Part shown: positions 3,843-60,263 of the stretch, one piece after another
How the letters are laid out: every line of letters starts with the position of its first letter
Numbering within the stretch: position 1 is the first letter of the stretch
NCBI GenBank assembly: GCA_965218435.1
Contig: CBDCKW010000005.1
Span: 288,001 to 352,000, forward strand
Source: Truepera sp.
GTDB lineage: Bacteria; Deinococcota; Deinococci; Deinococcales; Trueperaceae
Direction: 5' to 3'
Length of the DNA stretch: 64,000 nucleotides
Made by a program: the position numbers and the translations under genes
The notes under the pieces: model-generated
Database searches by the model: none
What the model saw: the letters and a program-made list of their open reading frames with translations, nothing else
Told to the model about the DNA's origin: nothing

Positions 3843-4051
3843 TGAGTCTACGCCGCAAGCGGCGTAGACTCACAAGGTGAGCAAGTATATCCACAAGAGC
3901 CACAACGTAGATATTCTGATGTACCACATAGTTTTTCCGGCGAAGTACCGTCGCGCGGTGATAGACGATGAAGTTGACAACGTGCTCAAAGAAGTCTGCA
4001 TGGAGATTGAGAAGCGTTACGAGATCATATTTTTAGAGATAGGCACAGACA
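3843..4051 (+). mobile_element. tnpA: IS200/IS605 left end and truncated Y1 transposase
   Basis: Perfect hairpin TGAGTCTACGCCGC-AA-GCGGCGTAGACTCA at 3843-3872. ORF at 3877 reads MSKYIHKSHNV...YHIVFPAKYRR and is cut by IS982 just before the HUH motif. Confidence 0.85.
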
Positions 4052-51267: not shown

Positions 51268-52564
51268 GATTCCGGAAGAGCCGCTAAAACGGAGACCAAG
51301 TTAAGCCTCTGCTGCACAATGGGAGGCGAGATGAAAGAACGCAGGGTCTACACCGCAGAATTCAAGCGCGAAGCGGTCCGGCTGAGCGACCAAGCCGGCG
51401 TCAGCGTGGTTCAGGTTGCCCAGGAGCTGGGCGTATCCGACTACAGCCTCTACAAGTGGCGCAAACAGGCGAGGGCGAGCGGCGAGTTGGCCTTTCCGGG
51501 GAACGGCAAGGTCGCTTTGACCGCTGAGCAGCAGGAGAACGTACGCTTGAAGCGGGAGCTCGAGCGGGTAACGCAGGAGCGTGACATCTTAAAAAAAGCG
51601 GTCAAGTTCTTTGCCGGGGAAAGCAAGTGAAATATGCCTTCATCAAGGAACACCGCGGCTCTTGGGCTGTCAGCTTGATGACCGGGGTGTTGGCGGTGTC
51701 GGTCAGCGGTTTCTACGACTGGTTGCGGCGGGGGCAGAGCAAGCGAGCCAAGGAAGACGAAACGCTGAGCGAGAAGATCGTGATGTTCCACTGTGGGGAA
51801 CTAGGCCCACGAGGGCCGGGCTTTGCCCGTTCTAGAGCCGCTTTACCTACGGTTCGCCGCGCATCCACAAGGACCTACGAGCTGCCGGACACAACGTCGG
51901 GCGCAAGCGTGTGGCCCGTCTGATGCGCTCAGCCAGCATCAGGGGCAAAACGAAACGGAAGTTCAAGACCACCACAACCTCCCAGCACGCGCGCCCTGAG
52001 GCGGTAAATCTCGTCGAGCAGAACTTCGATGTGGCAACCCCCAACACCCTCTGGGCCAGCGATATCACCTACCTGCCCACAGCCGAGGGCTGGTTGTACC
52101 TGGCCGTGACGCTCGACCTCTTCAGCCGCAAAGTCGTTGGCTGGGCCTTCTCCGACAGACTCACCGATGACCTCACCCTCTCGGCGCTGACGATGGCGAC
52201 GCGGCAGCGGCCCGATACGGCGACACTGACGCATCATTCGGACGGCGGGTCGCAATACGCCAGCCGCGCCTTTAGAGCCGAACTGAGGGCCAACCACATC
52301 ATGCAGAGTATGTCGGGTAAGGGCAACTGCTACGACAATGCCGTCGTCGAATCGTTCTTCGCCACCCTGAAAACCGAGGAGGTCGAGGGTGCACACTACG
52401 AAACCCGCCAACAGGCTAAAACCAGCATCTTCAGCTACCTCGAGGGCTTCTATAACACTAAGCGCAGGCACTCTTCCCTGGGGTTTCTATCTCCTAACGA
52501 CTTCGAACGAGTACACTTCGCTAGAGCTGCTTAACTACGACTCCGCGAAAATGGCTCAATATCA
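51268..52564 (+). mobile_element. IS3-family element with orfB disrupted by a 38-nt insertion
   Basis: OrfA YTAEFKREAV and OrfB WASDITY, HHSDGGSQY, DNAVVESFF. Right end ...CAATATCA. The probable left IR (TGACATT at 49510) is split by IS1182. Confidence 0.9.
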
Positions 52565-52650
52565 AAGGCAGATGTACGGGCGTGCTAGCTTCGATCTCCT
52601 GAGAAAAAAGGTTCTGTTGGCAACCTAATCACACCTTTTGCGGCAGAGCC
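52565..52650 (+). mobile_element. ISL3 right-end remnant
   Basis: RQMYGRASFDLLRKKVLL* followed by IR ...GCGGCAGAGCC. Confidence 0.8.
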
Positions 52651-52972
52651 AAAGTTACAGACCAAGCCCAAAGCATCACTGTATGAAGCCTTTGAACCCA
52701 AAGAGGCGCACCGACTTGCCGCAAAGCTCGAGTTACACCACACGTCTAAGCATGGCAGTTGGCTAAACGCCGTTGAAATTGAGTTTGCCGCGCTCAGCAA
52801 GCAGTGTCTGGACAGGCGTATCGCTGACCTGGCTTTACTCACCCAAGAGGTACGTGCCTGGACGCTCGAACGCAATCTGCTGGGCACGAAAGTCAACTGG
52901 CAATTCACGACCACTGATGCGCGTATCAATTTGGCTCGGCTTTATCCTGTAAACCTTTGTTGACGGACTACT
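52651..52972 (+). mobile_element. IS630-family C-terminal remnant
   Basis: SLYEAF...HTSKHGSWLNAVEIE...VNWQFTT.DAR..L.RLYP. Confidence 0.8.
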
Positions 52973-53024
52973 AATGGCTATCCTTGACACCTCTATAGCA
53001 AGTATTGCTACAAAACTTAAGCAC

Positions 53025-53279
53025 TTAGGGCTGAAGGTAGAACACCATACCCGCATGATAGAGCACGCCGTCCCTAAAGTCTCCGTCCGCCGTAAAACCC
53101 GTATCGTCCCAGTACTCGATATGGTCGCCGGTGACTTCGTAGCGCCCCTGATATGCACTTTCTTTAGCGCCGCGCGCCTCGTCATAACGACCGTTCGGCA
53201 AAAGCTCGTGACGTATCCGGCCATCCGCCGTTACCCACATTCCGACATAAGGATGCGTCACCGCAGCTCCCGTCATCAC
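53025..53279 (-). CDS. Atu4866-domain protein
   Basis: HPYVGMWVTADGRIRHELLPNGRYDEARG...YWDDTGFTADG. Confidence 0.85.
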   Translation of the reverse strand: MMTGAAVTHPYVGMWVTADGRIRHELLPNGRYDEARGAKESAYQGRYEVTGDHIEYWDDTGFTADGDFRDGVLYHAGMVFYLQP

Positions 53280-53857
53280 GGCGCGTTCTGCCTCTCGAAC
53301 AGCGGGGCAATCTCTTCGGGTTGAACGGTCCAGGCATAGTTGAGTTCATGGTGGATTTTCCATTCATTGCCGTTGCACGTCCAACCGAGCTGCGACCGGC
53401 CATCAAAAGCGATGACCTGACCGTCAAGGCGGTTGATCTGACCGACAAAACCCAATGTCGTAGAGGCGACCGTACCGCTGACAAGTTCGTCATCACCACC
53501 TGTCAGGGCGTGCCGGACCGAACGCGCGGCGTTTTGCAGGTCTTCCCAGTTCGCACCGTACGTTGCGCTATCGGTGAAGAGCTGCGTATCGCCCGGTGCG
53601 AAGTTGTCGTAGAACACGCCCGTAGGGTGCTCGAGATCGTAGTAACGCGCCATCTTCTTTGCAAAGGCGAACTCAGGATCACCCTCCCGGCGCTCCCAGC
53701 CTTCCATGATCCAGTCGGTGTGAAGCGCAAGTGGGGCGTTCGGTCCGGCTTGGGCACAAACATTTTCTTGCGCTAGCGCAGGACGAGACGTTCCTAGAAC
53801 GGTCAGCGCGACCACTGACAAGGTAGCTATTACCAACCTGATCCTTCTGTAAATCAT
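53276..53857 (-). CDS. Exported NTF2/SnoaL-like protein
   Basis: Signal peptide and a WKIHHE C-terminal motif. Confidence 0.7.
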   Translation of the reverse strand: MIYRRIRLVIATLSVVALTVLGTSRPALAQENVCAQAGPNAPLALHTDWIMEGWERREGDPEFAFAKKMARYYDLEHPTGVFYDNFAPGDTQLFTDSATYGANWEDLQNAARSVRHALTGGDDELVSGTVASTTLGFVGQINRLDGQVIAFDGRSQLGWTCNGNEWKIHHELNYAWTVQPEEIAPLFERQNAP

Positions 53858-54016
53858 AGGTGTTTTCCTCCGTGTCAGGTGAAATCCCTGACAACCACTA
53901 TGATCGCGTCAGGGAGCCCAAAACGGATAGACCAAAGCCGCAGAATTATTGCACAATCTTCCAGCAGTGCCCGGTTTGAAACAGGCGCAAACAGCTGAGG
54001 GCGCTAAAGTAACCCT

Positions 54017-54970
54017 ATGATCGAAGCGATACCCAAGGAGCTTTTTAAGGTTACGAACCCTCCTGTGCTAAACCGACAAAACGAGCTGGCCCGTTTGCTT
54101 GATGAGCAAGTGACTGAAGACGGCGTTTATCCGACCACTATCCCCCGAGTTTCACTGATCCGTATGTCCAGACCGACCGAACCCCTCTACACGCTGCACA
54201 CACCTGCACTTTGCATCGTCGCTCAGGGTCAAAAGCAGGTGCTGCTGGGCGACGAGGTTTACCGCTATGACCATAACCAATACCTAATCGCCTCTGCTGA
54301 GTTGCCAGTGATCGGTCAAGTCACCCAAGCTTCGCCGGAAGCGCCTTACTTGTGTTTCCAGCTCGACTTTGACGCTACGATGCTCAGCGAACTGATGCTC
54401 GAGGCTAAATTAGCAGCGCCGAGTGACCAACCAGATTCAGGGTTGACCTTAGCTTCGGCGGCTGCTGCCCCGGACCTTCTTAGTGCGGCAGTTAGGCTTC
54501 TGCGCTTGCTCAAAACGCCCCAAGACCTCCCCTTCCTGGCACCCCTTACCGAACGCGAACTGCTCTACCGTTTGCTCACCGGTGAACAAGCCCAAAAGTT
54601 GCGGCAGATTGCCCTGGCTAGCAGTAAGTTGCAAAGAGTCAACCGGGCGATCAGCTGGCTTAAAGAACACTACCGTGAACCGTTCCGTGTCGAGACGCTC
54701 GCCGCGGAAGCTCATATGAGCCCCTCAGCGCTGCATCAACATTTCAAAGCGGTCACTTCAATGAGTCCCCTGCGGTATCAAAAGCAGTTGCGTTTGCAAG
54801 AGGCGCGGCGGCTGATTTTGGGAACGTCAGTAGACGTAGCTAGTGCTGGTTTTAGCGTGGGTTATGACAGTCCTTCGCAGTTCAGCCGTGAATATCGCCG
54901 TTTATTTGGTGCGCCGCCGCTGCGCGATACGGCTGAGCTAAAAGCGTTACAGATGCAACCGAAGACCTAA
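54017..54970 (+). CDS. AraC-family regulator (AraC_N type)
   Basis: LCIVAQGQK, MSPLRYQKQLRLQEAR, VGYDSPSQFSREY. Confidence 0.92.
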   Translation: MIEAIPKELFKVTNPPVLNRQNELARLLDEQVTEDGVYPTTIPRVSLIRMSRPTEPLYTLHTPALCIVAQGQKQVLLGDEVYRYDHNQYLIASAELPVIGQVTQASPEAPYLCFQLDFDATMLSELMLEAKLAAPSDQPDSGLTLASAAAAPDLLSAAVRLLRLLKTPQDLPFLAPLTERELLYRLLTGEQAQKLRQIALASSKLQRVNRAISWLKEHYREPFRVETLAAEAHMSPSALHQHFKAVTSMSPLRYQKQLRLQEARRLILGTSVDVASAGFSVGYDSPSQFSREYRRLFGAPPLRDTAELKALQMQPKT

Positions 54971-55139
54971 TTGAGGAAACTCGATTAACGTGGACAACAT
55001 GCCTGACGCACCCGCTCAGTTCGAACAGCTCCGGCCCTTCAGCTCCACTCGAGACCGCAACCTCTAAGCCATAGAACGCCTGCGACAAACCGGCCTCTAT
55101 GAAAGAGCTTTTGTTTACTGCGGTGCTGGCTATGATTGT

Positions 55140-56475
55140 ACCCCTTGAATCCGAGTCGGGCCTCCATACGCACTCGCGGTGCAGTTTGGGATCCGTAGGG
55201 GTGGGAGCTGCTACCCAACAAGCGACCTGAGGGGGTCGGCCGAATAGTGACGCAGTCTCCCGGATACGACGTCGTAGTAGGGCAAGAAGATACTTTAGCT
55301 AGAAGCCATCTCAAAAACGAACTTACGGCTGCATAACTGTTAAAACAGCGGAATGGAACTCACCGATGAACAGTGGACGATACTCGAGCCACTTATTCCC
55401 GAGCCAATTCGACGCAAAGATGGCAAAGGTCGTCCTAGACGAGAGCCACGAGAAGTGCTTGAAGGTATCTGCTGGATTTTACGAACGGGCGCACAATGGG
55501 CTGATTTACCTGAACGTTATCCGCCGTACCAAACGTGTCATCGGCGCTTTCAAGAATGGGAGAGAAACGGCGTACTTCAAGGGGTTTTGGAGACCTTAGC
55601 GCAAGATTTAGAAGAACGCGGCGAACTTGACTTAAGCGAGTGTTTCATAGACGGCACCTTTGTCGCTGCTAAAAAGGGGGGTCAGCAATTGGTAAGACTA
55701 AACGGGGCAGAAGAGCCTTCAGCAGGGCGTATCATGCCGTCATCAACACCCATTGCGTCTATGACCAGATGCTACCTGCTGCTAACGGCTCTCTGGTAGC
55801 AAAGTCATGGCGGTATCAGACGCTGCTGGTACTTGCCTCGCCTTGCACGTTACATCTGCTTCACCACATGAAGTCAAGCTGGTACACGCGACTCTCGCAT
55901 CTCGACACGTCAGCGGCAAGCCTAAAAAGTTAATCGGTGATAAGGCGTATGACAGCGACCCGCTCGATGCTGAGCTAGCCGAAACGGGCGTTGAGATGAT
56001 TGCGCCCCATAGAAGAAACCGTAAAAAAGTAAAGACGCAAGACGGACGCAAACTAAGACGCTACAAAAGGCGCTGGAAGATTGAACGGCTCTTTGCCCAC
56101 CTTGGCAACTTTCGCCGCTTAGTCGTTCGTTATGAACACTATTCCCAAAACTTCTTGGCTTTCCTGCAGCTCGGTTGCATTAAATTACTGCTTAGGCGTT
56201 TTTGAGATGGCTTCTAGTCGGGACTAACAGGCGGTTGCTGTTATAGAACAGGTCGTAGACCTCACCGGTTGTCCATAACCGGTAGCGTAAGACGGCGAGT
56301 TTCCGGGCTACGGCTCAGTACACCCACTAGGGCGGGTCCCGTGACCCTGATACGATGACAGCGCGATTCCTACTTTTAGGACCTCCTTTATCGAGGAGCT
56401 TAAGTCCGAAACGCTTGAGGTCGCAGTCTGGCCCATAGCGCGCCAGCTGATACTGCACGGCTTGCTCGAGTAGCG
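55140..56475 (-). mobile_element. IS110-family remnant: transposase C-terminus plus long downstream non-coding end, interrupted by IS5
   Basis: LLEQAVQY..ARYGPDCDLKRFGLKL...RAVI|AVARKLAVL.YRLWTTGEVY. After removing IS5 the gene stops and is followed by a structured end of about 150 nt. Confidence 0.75.
55299..56217 (+). mobile_element. IS5-family (IS427-like) element with two-ORF frameshift transposase
   Basis: Ends CTAGAAGCCATCTCAAAAACG / CGTTTTTGAGATGGCTTCTAG. LTDEQW, an AAAAAGGGGGG slip site, GDKAYD, RWKIER. Carries an insertion at 55709-55794. Confidence 0.92.
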
Positions 56476-56689
56476 GCGTTAGCTCGACCCTGTCGCTCCG
56501 CCCCTGCCGGACCCCGCCGGCCCACGTTACCCATTCGGCCCTACTAGGACAAGCTTCACATCTCTCACGTGGTGGCACTTCGTCGCTCTACCCGTCACGT
56601 AGACGCTGACCGTGACCCGCTCGAAACAAAACCCCCAAACAACCACAAAATACATCTTATTAAGACGTACAGCCCTGCCCCGCCACCCC

Positions 56690-56922
56690 TTGAAGAGAGT
56701 TTTGTTGGGCGTATTCTCGATGTCGACCGGAGCGTCGTGAGGACTTGGGGACGTATCCAGGCAGAGGCGAAACGGCAGGGCCGTACCCCACCAGCGATCG
56801 ACGCACTAATTGCAGCCACGGCCATCACCCATGAGCTAGTGCTGGTCACTCGGAATATTGAGGACGTGGCCGCACTCCCCGTCGAGACGTTGAATCCTTG
56901 GATGTTTGGAGACAGTGAATGA
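56690..56922 (+). pseudogene. VapC/PIN toxin C-terminal fragment
   Basis: GRILDVD...IDALIAATA..H.LVLVTRN..D...NPW. Confidence 0.8.
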
Positions 56923-57485
56923 GCGACATCGGGGAGAGGATGATTCGTGAGTTGCAGGCGATTTGTAAGGTACCCGAGGCTTCTCAAACGCTAGGATTTA
57001 GTAAGAAAGCGCAACCGGTTTATGTGTTCGTCAAGCATTCACCAGAGAGCCTCTGGTACAACCGGGATAAAGCAGTAGGGGAGAACGTACCGATTCTCGA
57101 GCGTGACCTGACCGGCTACCTGGTCAACCTCTGGCGGTATGAAAGACAAGACGACGCGACGGGTGAAGGAGTACCCAAACTCAACATCCAGGTCAGGGCC
57201 GATCAAGACTATGTGATTCAGTCGGGCTTCTCGACGAACTTCGCCCGCACTTTTCTCGCTGGCGTGTTGGAGCTCGAGCCTGGAGCCCTTAAAGAGCCGC
57301 TGACGCTGATCGTCGAGGACAACGCGGGCTCGAAAGCCAGACCTACCGTTTTTTGCCGGGTTGAGTCTAAAGGCCAGCGGATGACGCCGACGCTAAACCG
57401 CGAGACCAAGGCTGAAACACTTTACGATAAGGTTGTCCAGAAATTTGGCTTTGACAATCCGTATGCGGTGGGGGAGAACGACTAA
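56919..57485 (+). CDS. Hypothetical protein
   Basis: 188-aa ORF with GGAGA RBS and an ATGA overlap with the upstream stop. Confidence 0.7.
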   Translation: MSDIGERMIRELQAICKVPEASQTLGFSKKAQPVYVFVKHSPESLWYNRDKAVGENVPILERDLTGYLVNLWRYERQDDATGEGVPKLNIQVRADQDYVIQSGFSTNFARTFLAGVLELEPGALKEPLTLIVEDNAGSKARPTVFCRVESKGQRMTPTLNRETKAETLYDKVVQKFGFDNPYAVGEND

Positions 57486-57818
57486 CTATGTCAGGTTTGC
57501 GTTCTATGAGGTAGACCAAGTGGCTGGGATGTAGCCCGGTTACCTGACTGTACAGGATTACATTACCTTCCGAGATTCGCTGTTCTCTTCGGCGCGGCTG
57601 AAGTTGACGCAAGCAGGAAGCGTAACTCACGAGAGCGGCGTAAAGACAGGATGGAGGACAAGCTCGAGGCGCTCGTGCGCTTCTTTTGCCCTGAACCGAC
57701 AGGAGCTTTACGTAAAAAACTAGTGCCTACGCTTCAACCTGTTTAGGCGTCATTCTAAAAGCGGCATCTATATCCAAGAATGGAGTATAGTTACTTCAGA
57801 ATAGGAGTGCCTACCAAT

Positions 57819-58274
57819 ATGACGCTCGATGCCCCCATTTTTACTCCAACCCGCCGACCGAATACCTTACCTGGCCTACGAATACTTGGCCTTAGCGCCC
57901 GAAACGAAGTTCAGCTCGTTGAGATGCTTGGAGGTGGAATAGAGGCAGAACGCGCCGAGCAGCTGGCACAGTATCTAGACGTAAGCCTGACGGAACTACT
58001 CGAGCTGACCGGTATCAAAAGTAGTACCTACCACGACCGGAAGAAAAAGAGGAAACCTTTGTCTGCTGAGGAGTCAGAACGCCTCTACCGCCTAGCTAAG
58101 CTCGCTGAAGCAGCCGAAGCGTACTTTGAAGACAAATCTGCCGCGCGGCGCTGGTTAGAACACCCGAAAGTCGCCCTTGGAGGTAAATCTCCTCTGGTGT
58201 TTGGGCGTACGGCCGAGGGGTCGGCTTACGTACTGGCGTTACTTGGGCGGATGGCATATGGGGTCATTTCCTGA
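57819..58274 (+). CDS. Xre/MbcA/ParS antitoxin
   Basis: LSAEESERLYR, WLEHPKVALGGKSP, LLGRMAYGVIS. Confidence 0.9.
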   Translation: MTLDAPIFTPTRRPNTLPGLRILGLSARNEVQLVEMLGGGIEAERAEQLAQYLDVSLTELLELTGIKSSTYHDRKKKRKPLSAEESERLYRLAKLAEAAEAYFEDKSAARRWLEHPKVALGGKSPLVFGRTAEGSAYVLALLGRMAYGVIS

Positions 58275-58771
58275 GCGTTGTCCCCACCTACCGGATCAGC
58301 GATGCACGTTACAGAGACAGCACCCTCTCTGGCATGGGGGCTTACCTTTATGGGGGCCGCTGGAACAGTCTGGGGCAGTATGTGGTCTACGCCAGTGGTA
58401 ACCTCAGCCTGGCGATGCTCGAGGTGCTCGTTCATATCGACGACGCCGAGGCGTTCGCTAGGCAAGCGCATGTCTACCAGCGTTTGAGTTTTGACAGAAC
58501 CCAAGTTGCGGTGATCGATGAAGCCGCCTTACCTGAGGACTGGAACGCTCGTCCGGAAAGCATTGAGACCCGAGGTATCGGTGATGAGTGGCTGGCGCGA
58601 CAGGAAACTCCAGTCTTGGCGGTGCCGAGCGTCGTAGTTCCCGCCGAACTACGTTTTGAGCAGGAATACTTGAACTACCTCTTTAATTCACGGCACCCTG
58701 ATTTCGGTGCCTCCATAAAGGTCGGCGAGCTTCGAACTCTAGACTGGGATCCACGGTTTAAGCGGGAATAA
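58271..58771 (+). CDS. RES-domain toxin, probable CTG start
   Basis: In-frame YRISDARY...LSGMGAYLYGGRWNS lies upstream of the first ATG. CTGA overlaps the antitoxin stop. Confidence 0.85.
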   Translation: MSVVPTYRISDARYRDSTLSGMGAYLYGGRWNSLGQYVVYASGNLSLAMLEVLVHIDDAEAFARQAHVYQRLSFDRTQVAVIDEAALPEDWNARPESIETRGIGDEWLARQETPVLAVPSVVVPAELRFEQEYLNYLFNSRHPDFGASIKVGELRTLDWDPRFKRE

Positions 58772-58959
58772 CACGATCTACAAATTCAATCAGACCTTTA
58801 GCGGTTTGTGCTGACCTGCTTATTTCTCGGATTCAACAGCTCCTTAAAATACGGTTCGATTCCTGAAACGAAAGCTACCTTGAATTGCCCATAAGTGAAT
58901 CCGCGTCGGCACATACGGCTGACTAGATATGCGGCGGTCGCCAGCTTGCTTTAGCCGAA

Positions 58960-59067
58960 GAGACAGGGGAGCAATCCCACAGGGGCGTCGTGCTCTACAC
59001 TGGCGATCAGACCGTCCCGTTCGTGAAGGACCTCTACGCCTTGCCTATCGCCAGTTTATGGGGATAA
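58960..59067 (+). pseudogene. C-terminal remnant of an AAA ATPase/DUF4143 protein
   Basis: GVVLYTGDQTVPF..DLYALPIASLW*. Confidence 0.55.
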
Positions 59068-59097
59068 ATGGGTTGCTCTCACAAACTGTATACCTTA

Positions 59098-59440
59098 TTA
59101 GAGTACCTGTTTTCTATCTAAAGAGAAAAAGTCTAGTAAAACCCCGACAACAGCTTTCGCTTCTGGCTCGAGCCGCTTCAGAGTCGTTACAGCGGTAGCA
59201 TAGCCGTAGTTCTCAAACTTCTTTGCCGATGCGAAAAGGTTTCGGCTGACCTCTTTACTGGCGAAGTAGTCTGCCAGGCTCACAACGGGGTACCGGTTAA
59301 GTTGTTCAGCGATCTCTTGTGCAAGCGCCGCGCTCTCACTGCTCGGAGGGCCGTCGACCCTCTTTGAGGCCACGAGCCCCAAAGCCATGTTGACGATTTC
59401 GTTGGCTCGCTCTTTCACTGACGCGCCGTACTTTACAACC
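59098..59440 (-). pseudogene. Unknown gene C-terminal fragment abutting IS6
   Basis: Protein-like ORF whose 5' end runs into the IS6 remnant. Confidence 0.4.
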
Positions 59441-60263
59441 ATCGCTGGCCGAGCGACGTCATCGCGATGGCGGTGCGCTGGTATTTCTGCTACCGGCTGT
59501 CAGGTGCTAACGTCCGCGACCTGCTGGCCGAGCGCGGCATGGACGTAAGCAAGCAGACGGTGGCGGGCTGGGTACAGAAGTTCGCTGTTTTCCTGGCAGA
59601 AGCTGGCCGACGCTACGCCAGACCGCTCGGCAGGTGCTGGTTCGTGGACGAAACGTACGTGTGAGTGGGTAAGGCGTAGGCGTATTTGTACCGCGCCGTG
59701 GACGAGGCGGGACGGTCGTAGACGTATAGAACGGGCAACCTTTGGCCGGGCCGTTGGCCCTAGTTCGCTGCTGCGCGAGAAACGTGACTTAGAGAGTGCC
59801 GAAGCGTTCTTCGTGCAAGCGATTAAACGGCGTGGCGTCGTTCCGGATGAGGTCGTCACCGACAAGCACCGGGCGTACCTTCGAGCTGTACGCCGGCACG
59901 CGCTGAACGCTAAGCGCCGCCGCACAGGGCTACACCGCAGGCGAGCGCTGACTACCAAACCAATCGAGCGCTCGCATGTTCCCATCAAAGACCGAGTAAA
60001 GCCGATGCGCTGTTTGGGCTTGGTCGCAACCGGGCAACGTTTACTGGAGGGCGCTGAGCTGGCTCAAGCCGTGAGGTGTGGCGATATCCGTCCACCCGGC
60101 CGAGGTGATCCAAGCTTGGTGCACGAGAGTGCAAGGCTCGAAGTGACGACGTTTTCTTGGCTTTCGTCGGAGTTGCGAACCGTAGCCTGAGCCGCGTAGG
60201 GAATGAACCTCGTCTTAAGAGCAGTTCAGCGTCCTCGTTACCCCAGCACAACTTTACAGTCTC
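59440..60263 (+). mobile_element. IS6-family pseudogene
   Basis: AVRWY, W.VDETYV, YLYRAVD, VTDK, IERSH..IK. Contains stops, a 1-nt deletion and a 41-nt insertion. Confidence 0.88.

Follow-up and report, generated by a model that had tools for sequence, protein, structure and literature searches.

What do three small folded inserts, each lying in a transposase gene of a different family, represent? They occur in a 64,000-nucleotide stretch of a Truepera sp. genome (assembly GCA_965218435.1, contig CBDCKW010000005.1, positions 288,001 to 352,000 of the forward strand; hereafter the window). An original prediction, made from the letters alone, had described them as members of a tiny non-autonomous family selected for structure. 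Re-reading of the window sequence finds all three at the coordinates claimed, letter for letter, so that the observation of folded micro-inserts is confirmed; the interpretation placed on it is partly supported. We suggest herein that the inserts belong to a previously undescribed family of miniature (36-41 nt) mobile DNAs of the Deinococcota, which resemble repetitive extragenic palindromes (REPs) and hitchhike in insertion sequences (ISs), and we give this reading about an even chance of being correct. The inserts and their hosts are as follows, with bit scores from the covariance model R1, which was built from six seeds and contains 13 base pairs.

51798-51835, plus strand: insert a, 38 nt, read from the window sequence; 55.2 bits; sense to IS3 orfB; closing stem GAAC/GTTC, TA linker, 5-bp hairpin, 4-bp hairpin and TAG tail.
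51319..52534, plus strand: host of insert a, an IS3-family element with orfA at 51319-51630 and orfB at 51627-51797 plus 51836-52534, otherwise intact.
56315-56353, minus strand: insert b, 39 nt; 47.2 bits; sense to the IS110-like remnant; closing stem GTAT/GTAC (one wobble pair), CA linker, two hairpins and TGA tail.
56195..56587, minus strand: host of insert b, a C-terminal remnant of an IS110-like transposase; minus the 39 nt, its frame joins ...NRAVI to AVARKL....
59726-59766, minus strand: insert c, 41 nt; runs antisense to the IS6 gene and is a variant whose second hairpin region is longer.
59467..60190, plus strand: host of insert c, a decayed IS6-family remnant whose sequence upstream of the insert contains stops and a frameshift.

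In two of the hosts, a domain match starts at the insert. The Pfam models rve, HTH_21, rve_2 and rve_3 match 51836-52531, HTH_21 beginning at profile position 17, at the junction of insert a, and DDE_Tnp_IS240 (positions 35-136) matches 59768-60187, beginning right at the junction of insert c. The host remnant of insert b gave no Pfam match at an expectation value (E) <0.01, and we take it to be IS110-like from a C-terminal motif and from the original prediction.

The genome holds two IS3 paralogs, of 84% and 77% identity, in which exactly 38 nt, with one G ambiguous, are missing at the position of insert a. At insert b, contigs of the sequencing runs X1 and X3 are on balance exactly 39 nt shorter: they pass from 56314/56311 to 56371 through 17/20 diverged letters. 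Precise empty sites were also found at the DNA level for an ATAG-type insert and for the unit at C9:880570 (C5 and C9 denote contigs of the own genome, G000, of 4.8 Mb). None of these four sites shows a target duplication, with at most one base ambiguous, and a DDE-type miniature inverted-repeat transposable element was rejected on that ground. At the protein level, P0001 and P0002 are uninterrupted relatives of an IS982-like host (...EASHHDLTP...), as are P0121-P0127 of an IS630 host (...PTRWSSHGRLNL...). No empty site was found for insert c, whose host is decayed and whose boundary is uncertain by 1-2 nt. The claim of clean inserts that interrupt transposases is thus borne out against related, insert-free copies for a and b, and stands for c without that proof. 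When each is folded by itself as RNA, insert a shows clear structure (z -3.0) and inserts b and c are unremarkable (z about -0.6); single-sequence folding therefore does not carry the case, and the empty sites do. About 4 events are sense and 7 antisense to the host gene, a mixture that fits a DNA-level process. Insertion without target duplication and in both orientations, as first proposed, agrees with these empty sites and counts. No target consensus was found, the last four flanking bases being different at every site listed.

The unit is 36-41 nt long: a 4-bp stem closes a pair of G+C-rich hairpins that abut each other, giving a three-way junction that both DNA strands can form. The closing stems seen are GAAC/GTTC, GTAC/GTAC, GCAC/GTGC, ATAG/CTAT and GTAT/GTAC. 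A 2-nt linker, mostly TA or CA, is followed by a 5-bp hairpin with loops that are mostly ACNA; the second hairpin, of 4-5 bp, abuts the first, has the loop TTT, TAT, TAGT or ACT, and is followed by a tail of 2-3 nt. The common loops ACTA and TAGT are mutual reverse complements, and the two hairpins thus show the same loop on opposite strands. Among 27 distinct family members (alignment A4), standard pairs fill 98.6% of the pair cells, and both sides have changed in 9 of the 13 pairs, a statistic subject to kinship among the members. None of 500 shuffles reached the observed pairing and covariation, and slid controls paired at 22-51%. One closing-stem pair, for example, occurs as U-A (15), A-U (7) and C-G (4). 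Such pair-preserving changes uphold the idea of a tiny non-autonomous family selected for structure. The model strand holds five G-U wobble cells and at least one A-C cell, too few to name the selected strand or to bear out the original claim that the wobbles work on one strand only.

In the own genome, BLAST and R1 together returned 14 distinct loci at E<1e-5, and R1 matched 14 of 61 related genomes at E<=0.001, including four of five congeners and a few other genera of the same family; the proposed covariance-model search thus yielded further loci, with covariation, both genome-wide and in relatives. Insert c scored 24.4 bits (E 2.2e-6) when scored among the loci, does not appear in the R1 whole-genome scan listing, and has a 90%-identical copy in a different host of the own genome (G000:C9:2163600-2163640). 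An exact-pattern scan of 185,579 species' genomes for one subfamily found 26 stretches, all from records with the titles Meiothermus sp., Thermaceae bacterium or uncultured Truepera sp. A loose structure descriptor, which gave 1261 matches, mostly noise, was dropped in favor of the covariance model. The family had been called unrecognized, and it is so here as well: Rfam 15 gave no match at E<=1 over window positions 51500-60000, and hence no curated structured RNA or ribozyme family, the unit has no ribozyme-like conserved core, and the literature searched holds no description of such an element in the Deinococcota. One locus, G000:C5:2496-2565 (repeated at C5:245027-245096), holds a full and a partial unit in opposite orientation, 7 nt apart, beside an IS6 remnant; contig C5 contains long duplicated stretches about 242.5 kb apart.

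The distribution of the unit also speaks of movement. Insert a and the unit of an ISAs1-like gene lie in unrelated hosts, and a compensatory exchange of A-T for T-A in the closing stem is their sole difference. A 37-nt unit of identical sequence is present at three unrelated sites in three genomes. In the congener G001, a second unit is nested in the hairpin-2 loop of another, and a further subfamily forms a tandem pair; in metagenome-assembled genomes (MAGs) of Thermaceae, the unit forms intergenic, direct tandem arrays of 36 nt. Exact empty sites, nesting, arrays, identical units at unrelated sites and mixed orientation all fit a REP-like element moved in trans. A structure-recognizing enzyme would move the unit in trans as a folded single strand, and the unit could presumably also leave precisely. 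In this genus it would survive mainly inside IS transposase genes, where it is tolerated and is copied and transferred with the IS, and rare precise excision, or a transposase acting in trans, might keep the interrupted ISs transposing.

The own genome contains 11 independent events, most of which regain long frames once the unit is removed. About 8-10 of the 11 lie within IS-derived DNA; the hosts include IS3, IS6, an IS4/ISAs1-like gene, the IS110-like remnant (by motif), two DDE_Tnp_1 genes, one of them a weak match (E 0.0036), and an IS982/IS5-like gene in which DDE_Tnp_1_3 profile positions 61 and 71-73 flank the insert. One host is, judging by its motif, presumably an IS4-like fragment. 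Two other events lie in IS-rich debris, and one (C9:2015314) lies upstream of an ABC-transporter ATPase gene. Repeats of 200-6000 bp account for 3.7% of the own genome, which sets a minimum for its IS content, and the excess in IS DNA is therefore not due to chance. Of the 20 loci inspected in relatives, 10 fall clearly within transposase genes (IS630, IS5, IS982-like, IS21-like and others), 7 are unassignable, and 3, all in G001, lie outside transposase genes (valyl-tRNA synthetase gene flanks and a hicAB junction). Thus, residence of all copies in IS genes holds for the window (3/3) but not for the whole family, which is intergenic in G001 and in the Thermaceae MAGs. By the same token, the suspected bias toward ISs is real in the own genome, but strict IS targeting is not shown. 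The enrichment is best explained by tolerance plus hitchhiking; the element is intergenic where ISs are few. The same excess would be expected of a cellular system that writes the hairpin cassette into transposase genes as a silencer. However, such a device should not leave the element between genes, as it is in G001 and Thermaceae, no gene was found that goes with it, and the interrupted ISs still multiply; we regard it as highly improbable.

Some of the interrupted ISs still look active, which was unexpected. In the congener G005, a 1.1-kb IS630-family element is present in 20 copies that are 100% identical, each with a 38-nt unit within the DDE domain (profile position 34/35), and all eight copies examined lie in different flanks. 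No insert-free copy was found there, and the nearest other IS630 transposase of that genome is 53% identical. A second IS of G005 (IS4-like; five model matches, two of them read) is interrupted by a 39-nt unit in the region of its C-terminal catalytic motif, which we take to be the Y-R-E-K motif. To judge from the sequences, the multiplication of interrupted ISs suggests precise excision of the unit or its removal at expression. Apart from the insert, the G005 IS630 transposase (L061:2641-2665) is split between two frames, with an A-run (CAGAAAAAAGGC) in their overlap, as programmed -1 frameshifting or transcriptional slippage may explain; protein databases likewise annotate relatives as halves of about 160-180 aa.

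A second case comes from two IS982-like lineages of the own genome, A and B, which share 78% DNA identity and carry an identical 40-nt unit at the same codon; a third paralog is without exactly these 40 nt. Between A and B, synonymous divergence (dS) is 1.27 and nonsynonymous divergence (dN) 0.10, with a ratio (omega) of 0.09 upstream and 0.06 downstream of the insert and 0.08 overall; 61% of synonymous sites differ, and both halves are complete, with intact reading frames. P0010, from another organism, continues into the peptide that this insert encodes. P0001, which lacks the insert, shows 94-95% identity to A and P0010 and falls into the same shallow, unresolved clade, and the insert-free relative of the IS630 host, P0121, shows 89% identity. 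The tree of insert-bearing transposases is a shallow polytomy with insert-free forms among insert-bearing ones. Among 80 metagenomic IS982-like transposase relatives (57-80% identity), R1 gave no strong and one weak match, and a motif-gap parse succeeded for 23 of the 80, all without the insert. A search for longer proteins found none, which is weak evidence. Two explanations of the A/B pattern remain: on the one hand an old insert held constant in a gene kept functional, on the other repeated entry at the same site or precise loss. Either way, a behavior beyond that of a dead insertion is implied. P0010 also has an extra in-frame segment of 14 residues (GQVSIADVGRYTLN-like) within the conserved KFFGWRLHL motif, perhaps the read-through product of a further small insertion.

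These two cases bear on whether the units simply inactivate their hosts. If so, the units would kill IS genes, with a neutral or good effect for the host, and the interrupted multicopy ISs would spread via a helper transposase and segmental duplication, with no excision. The hosts of inserts b and c are indeed single-copy, decayed IS remnants, some duplicate copies belong to large segments that are themselves duplicated (C5:2496 = C5:245027), and most insert lengths (37-41 nt, some of them inferred) break the frame, except that insert b and the IS4-like insert are of 39 nt, a multiple of three. Plain inactivation is hard to reconcile, however, with 20 dispersed, identical IS630 copies and no intact one, with an identical insert in lineages as diverged as A and B, and with insert-free forms among insert-bearing ones in a shallow clade. 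We therefore consider it unlikely.

Conversely, the units might behave like introns, being precisely removed at expression, from RNA or in a programmed DNA step, so that the transposases stay functional and the unit is kept by selection. The low omega of both flanking halves of A and B, the recurrence of the insert in a third lineage (P0010), the presence of the unit in all 20 IS630 copies of G005, and the interruption of a second IS there in a presumed Y-R-E-K region would all be accounted for. On the other side, both orientations occur, in which case an RNA structure would be mirrored; there is neither a ribozyme-like core nor an Rfam match; take-off and landing codons are unmatched; and the element is also intergenic. 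Moreover, insert-free close relatives (P0001 at 94%, P0121 at 89%) mean that the insertions may be recent, and recent insertion alone gives a low omega. The chance that the intron-like account is right is, in our estimate, small. A broader form of the idea, by analogy, is that the units are a bacterial counterpart of ciliate internal eliminated sequences or unconventional mini-introns: a structure-specific activity, of the host or independent of the IS, would excise a three-way-junction cassette of 38-41 nt exactly, at the DNA or the RNA level, the transposases would be functional with their output throttled, and the cassette would be held by selection. Selection that holds the cassette constant would explain the identical insert across lineages with the synonymous divergence of A and B, and we put this form forward as possible, though tentative.

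The unit might also act in translation. In 4 of 5 antisense events the insert supplies a GTG or TTG in the downstream frame, and the upstream frame ends at a stop within or close to it, as would be expected if an antisense unit provided a stop and an in-frame restart and so divided the transposase into two polypeptides. Nevertheless, a start codon is present in none of three sense inserts, the inserts cut catalytic domains at varied positions, and the coincidence of frames is marginal (p about 0.05, an estimate), so that gene splitting seems very unlikely. Translational bypass or frameshifting was rejected, as the junctions do not fit: in nine cases read, the three bases before the insert are never the same as its last three.

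Several observations weigh against a REP-like hitchhiker. The excess of IS over intergenic copies in the own genome, about 10 to 1, is more than tolerance alone predicts, and the identical 40-nt insert in two IS lineages of dS 1.27 is unexplained by simple hitchhiking. Precise excision, on which the reading draws and which we hold to be probable, was not observed in the four sequencing runs, compared as assembled contigs. No mobilizing enzyme was found. A RAYT, one of the mobilizers suggested at the outset, was sought with model NF047646 and scored over cut-off in none of five element-bearing genomes, while an E. coli control was positive. Y1 transposases gave 22 matches in the own genome, and the nine proteins tested were all IS200-type; an HUH/Y1 enzyme finds no support: in G000, the left-end and right-end hairpins of three resident IS200 families differ from those of the unit, which also has no fixed target tetranucleotide. 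Nor was the anticipated RAYT or TnpA gene flanked by the motif found, the unit motif being unassociated with any of 19 Y1 loci scanned in G000; two loci in range are chance neighbors of an element copy. A search of G000 for a longer element with the 5' and 3' end motifs of the unit within 6 kb was also negative. A Y1 gene is present in 6 of 7 genomes with strong element matches versus 15 of 54 others, a difference confounded by kinship and IS load.

Two observations on the Y1 genes themselves may be recorded. Six matches of equal score to a 585-bp IS200-type element lie at G000:C5:105466-105825 and at five C9 loci; four of the six were aligned and are 100% identical, and the Y1 frame of the element holds one in-frame TAG. 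In addition, a fragment of a Y1 (IS200-type) transposase, profile positions 4-48, lies at window positions 3913-4047 (G000:C5:291913-292047).

Does the unit belong to any known system? In the literature, REPs and REPINs are described as short palindromic repeats accompanied by RAYT transposases (Nunvar 2010, PMC2817692; Bertels and Rainey 2011, PMC3116915; Di Nocera 2013, PMC3733652), and the palindromes as bearing a conserved GTAG (or CGTC) tetranucleotide at one end (PMC3733652). Like these, the unit is short, G+C-rich, palindromic and repeated in the genome (14 loci, with covariation), occurs in intergenic clustered arrays (in Thermaceae MAGs), and has occasional copies inside genes; its two hairpins, with the reverse-complementary loops ACTA and TAGT, recall inverted REP pairs. 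Unlike REPs, it has no GTAG or CGTC tag and instead shows a (T/C)A linker and CTAG-like ends, as seen in A4. A RAYT gene is found in genomes with REPs and is usually flanked by them, and REPs are mostly extragenic and often clustered. Extragenic clustering of this kind is seen for the unit in the Thermaceae arrays and in G001, whereas the own genome has most of its events in IS DNA. Further differences from REPs and REPINs are the lack of a RAYT over cut-off, the closed three-way junction, and, in the own genome, a low copy number, mostly in transposase genes, with clean, frame-breaking insertions and exact empty sites.

Other candidate kin are presumably the miniature (PATE-type) derivatives of IS200/IS605, moved by Y1 HUH enzymes. 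As in these, insertion of the unit is precise, hairpin-dependent and free of target duplication, and Y1 transposases are abundant here; in contrast to them, it has no fixed target tetra- or pentanucleotide, and its hairpins are unlike resident IS200 ends. The unit is also far shorter than the known left plus right ends of IS200/IS605 elements. The double-hairpin elements, GC clusters and 'byps' of fungal mitochondria are tiny, G+C-rich mobile inserts in coding genes, which in some yeasts are skipped at translation. The unit is likewise a tiny G+C-rich double-hairpin insert inside genes, but the hosts of the fungal elements are eukaryotic organelles, and the matching take-off and landing codons of bypass are absent from the unit. 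Ciliate internal eliminated sequences and XBP1/HAC1-type mini-introns are very short, their exact removal restores the frame, and their enzymes are known; internal eliminated sequences are bounded by TA. The unit is analogous to them in length and in that its exact removal would restore a frame, and those systems are eukaryotic. As membership in REP/RAYT systems, IS200/IS605 derivatives, DDE-type miniature elements, bypass elements and known RNAs has failed, the unit is filed among small structured repeats as new.

If hitchhiking is all that occurs, the unit would be among the smallest structured mobile DNAs known in bacteria and, having no recognized transposase, would point to an undiscovered structure-specific DNA-moving activity in the Deinococcota. 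If the interrupted ISs are truly functional, bacteria would possess a precise removal of very short intervening sequences, and with it a new layer of transposition control and a possible tool for scarless, structure-defined excision of DNA or RNA. Either way, annotation pipelines will label such transposases as pseudogenes even though the ISs may be active.

The window also holds a micro-insertion unlike the family. At 55710-55794, within an IS5-family transposase gene (55353-56205), lies an 85-nt, single-copy, imperfect hairpin (-32.8 kcal/mol) with ends AGAGCC/GGCTCT. In the paralog at G000:C9:1014182-1015016, 2 nt stand where the hairpin would be, and contigs of the sequencing runs X3 and X6 skip the hairpin.

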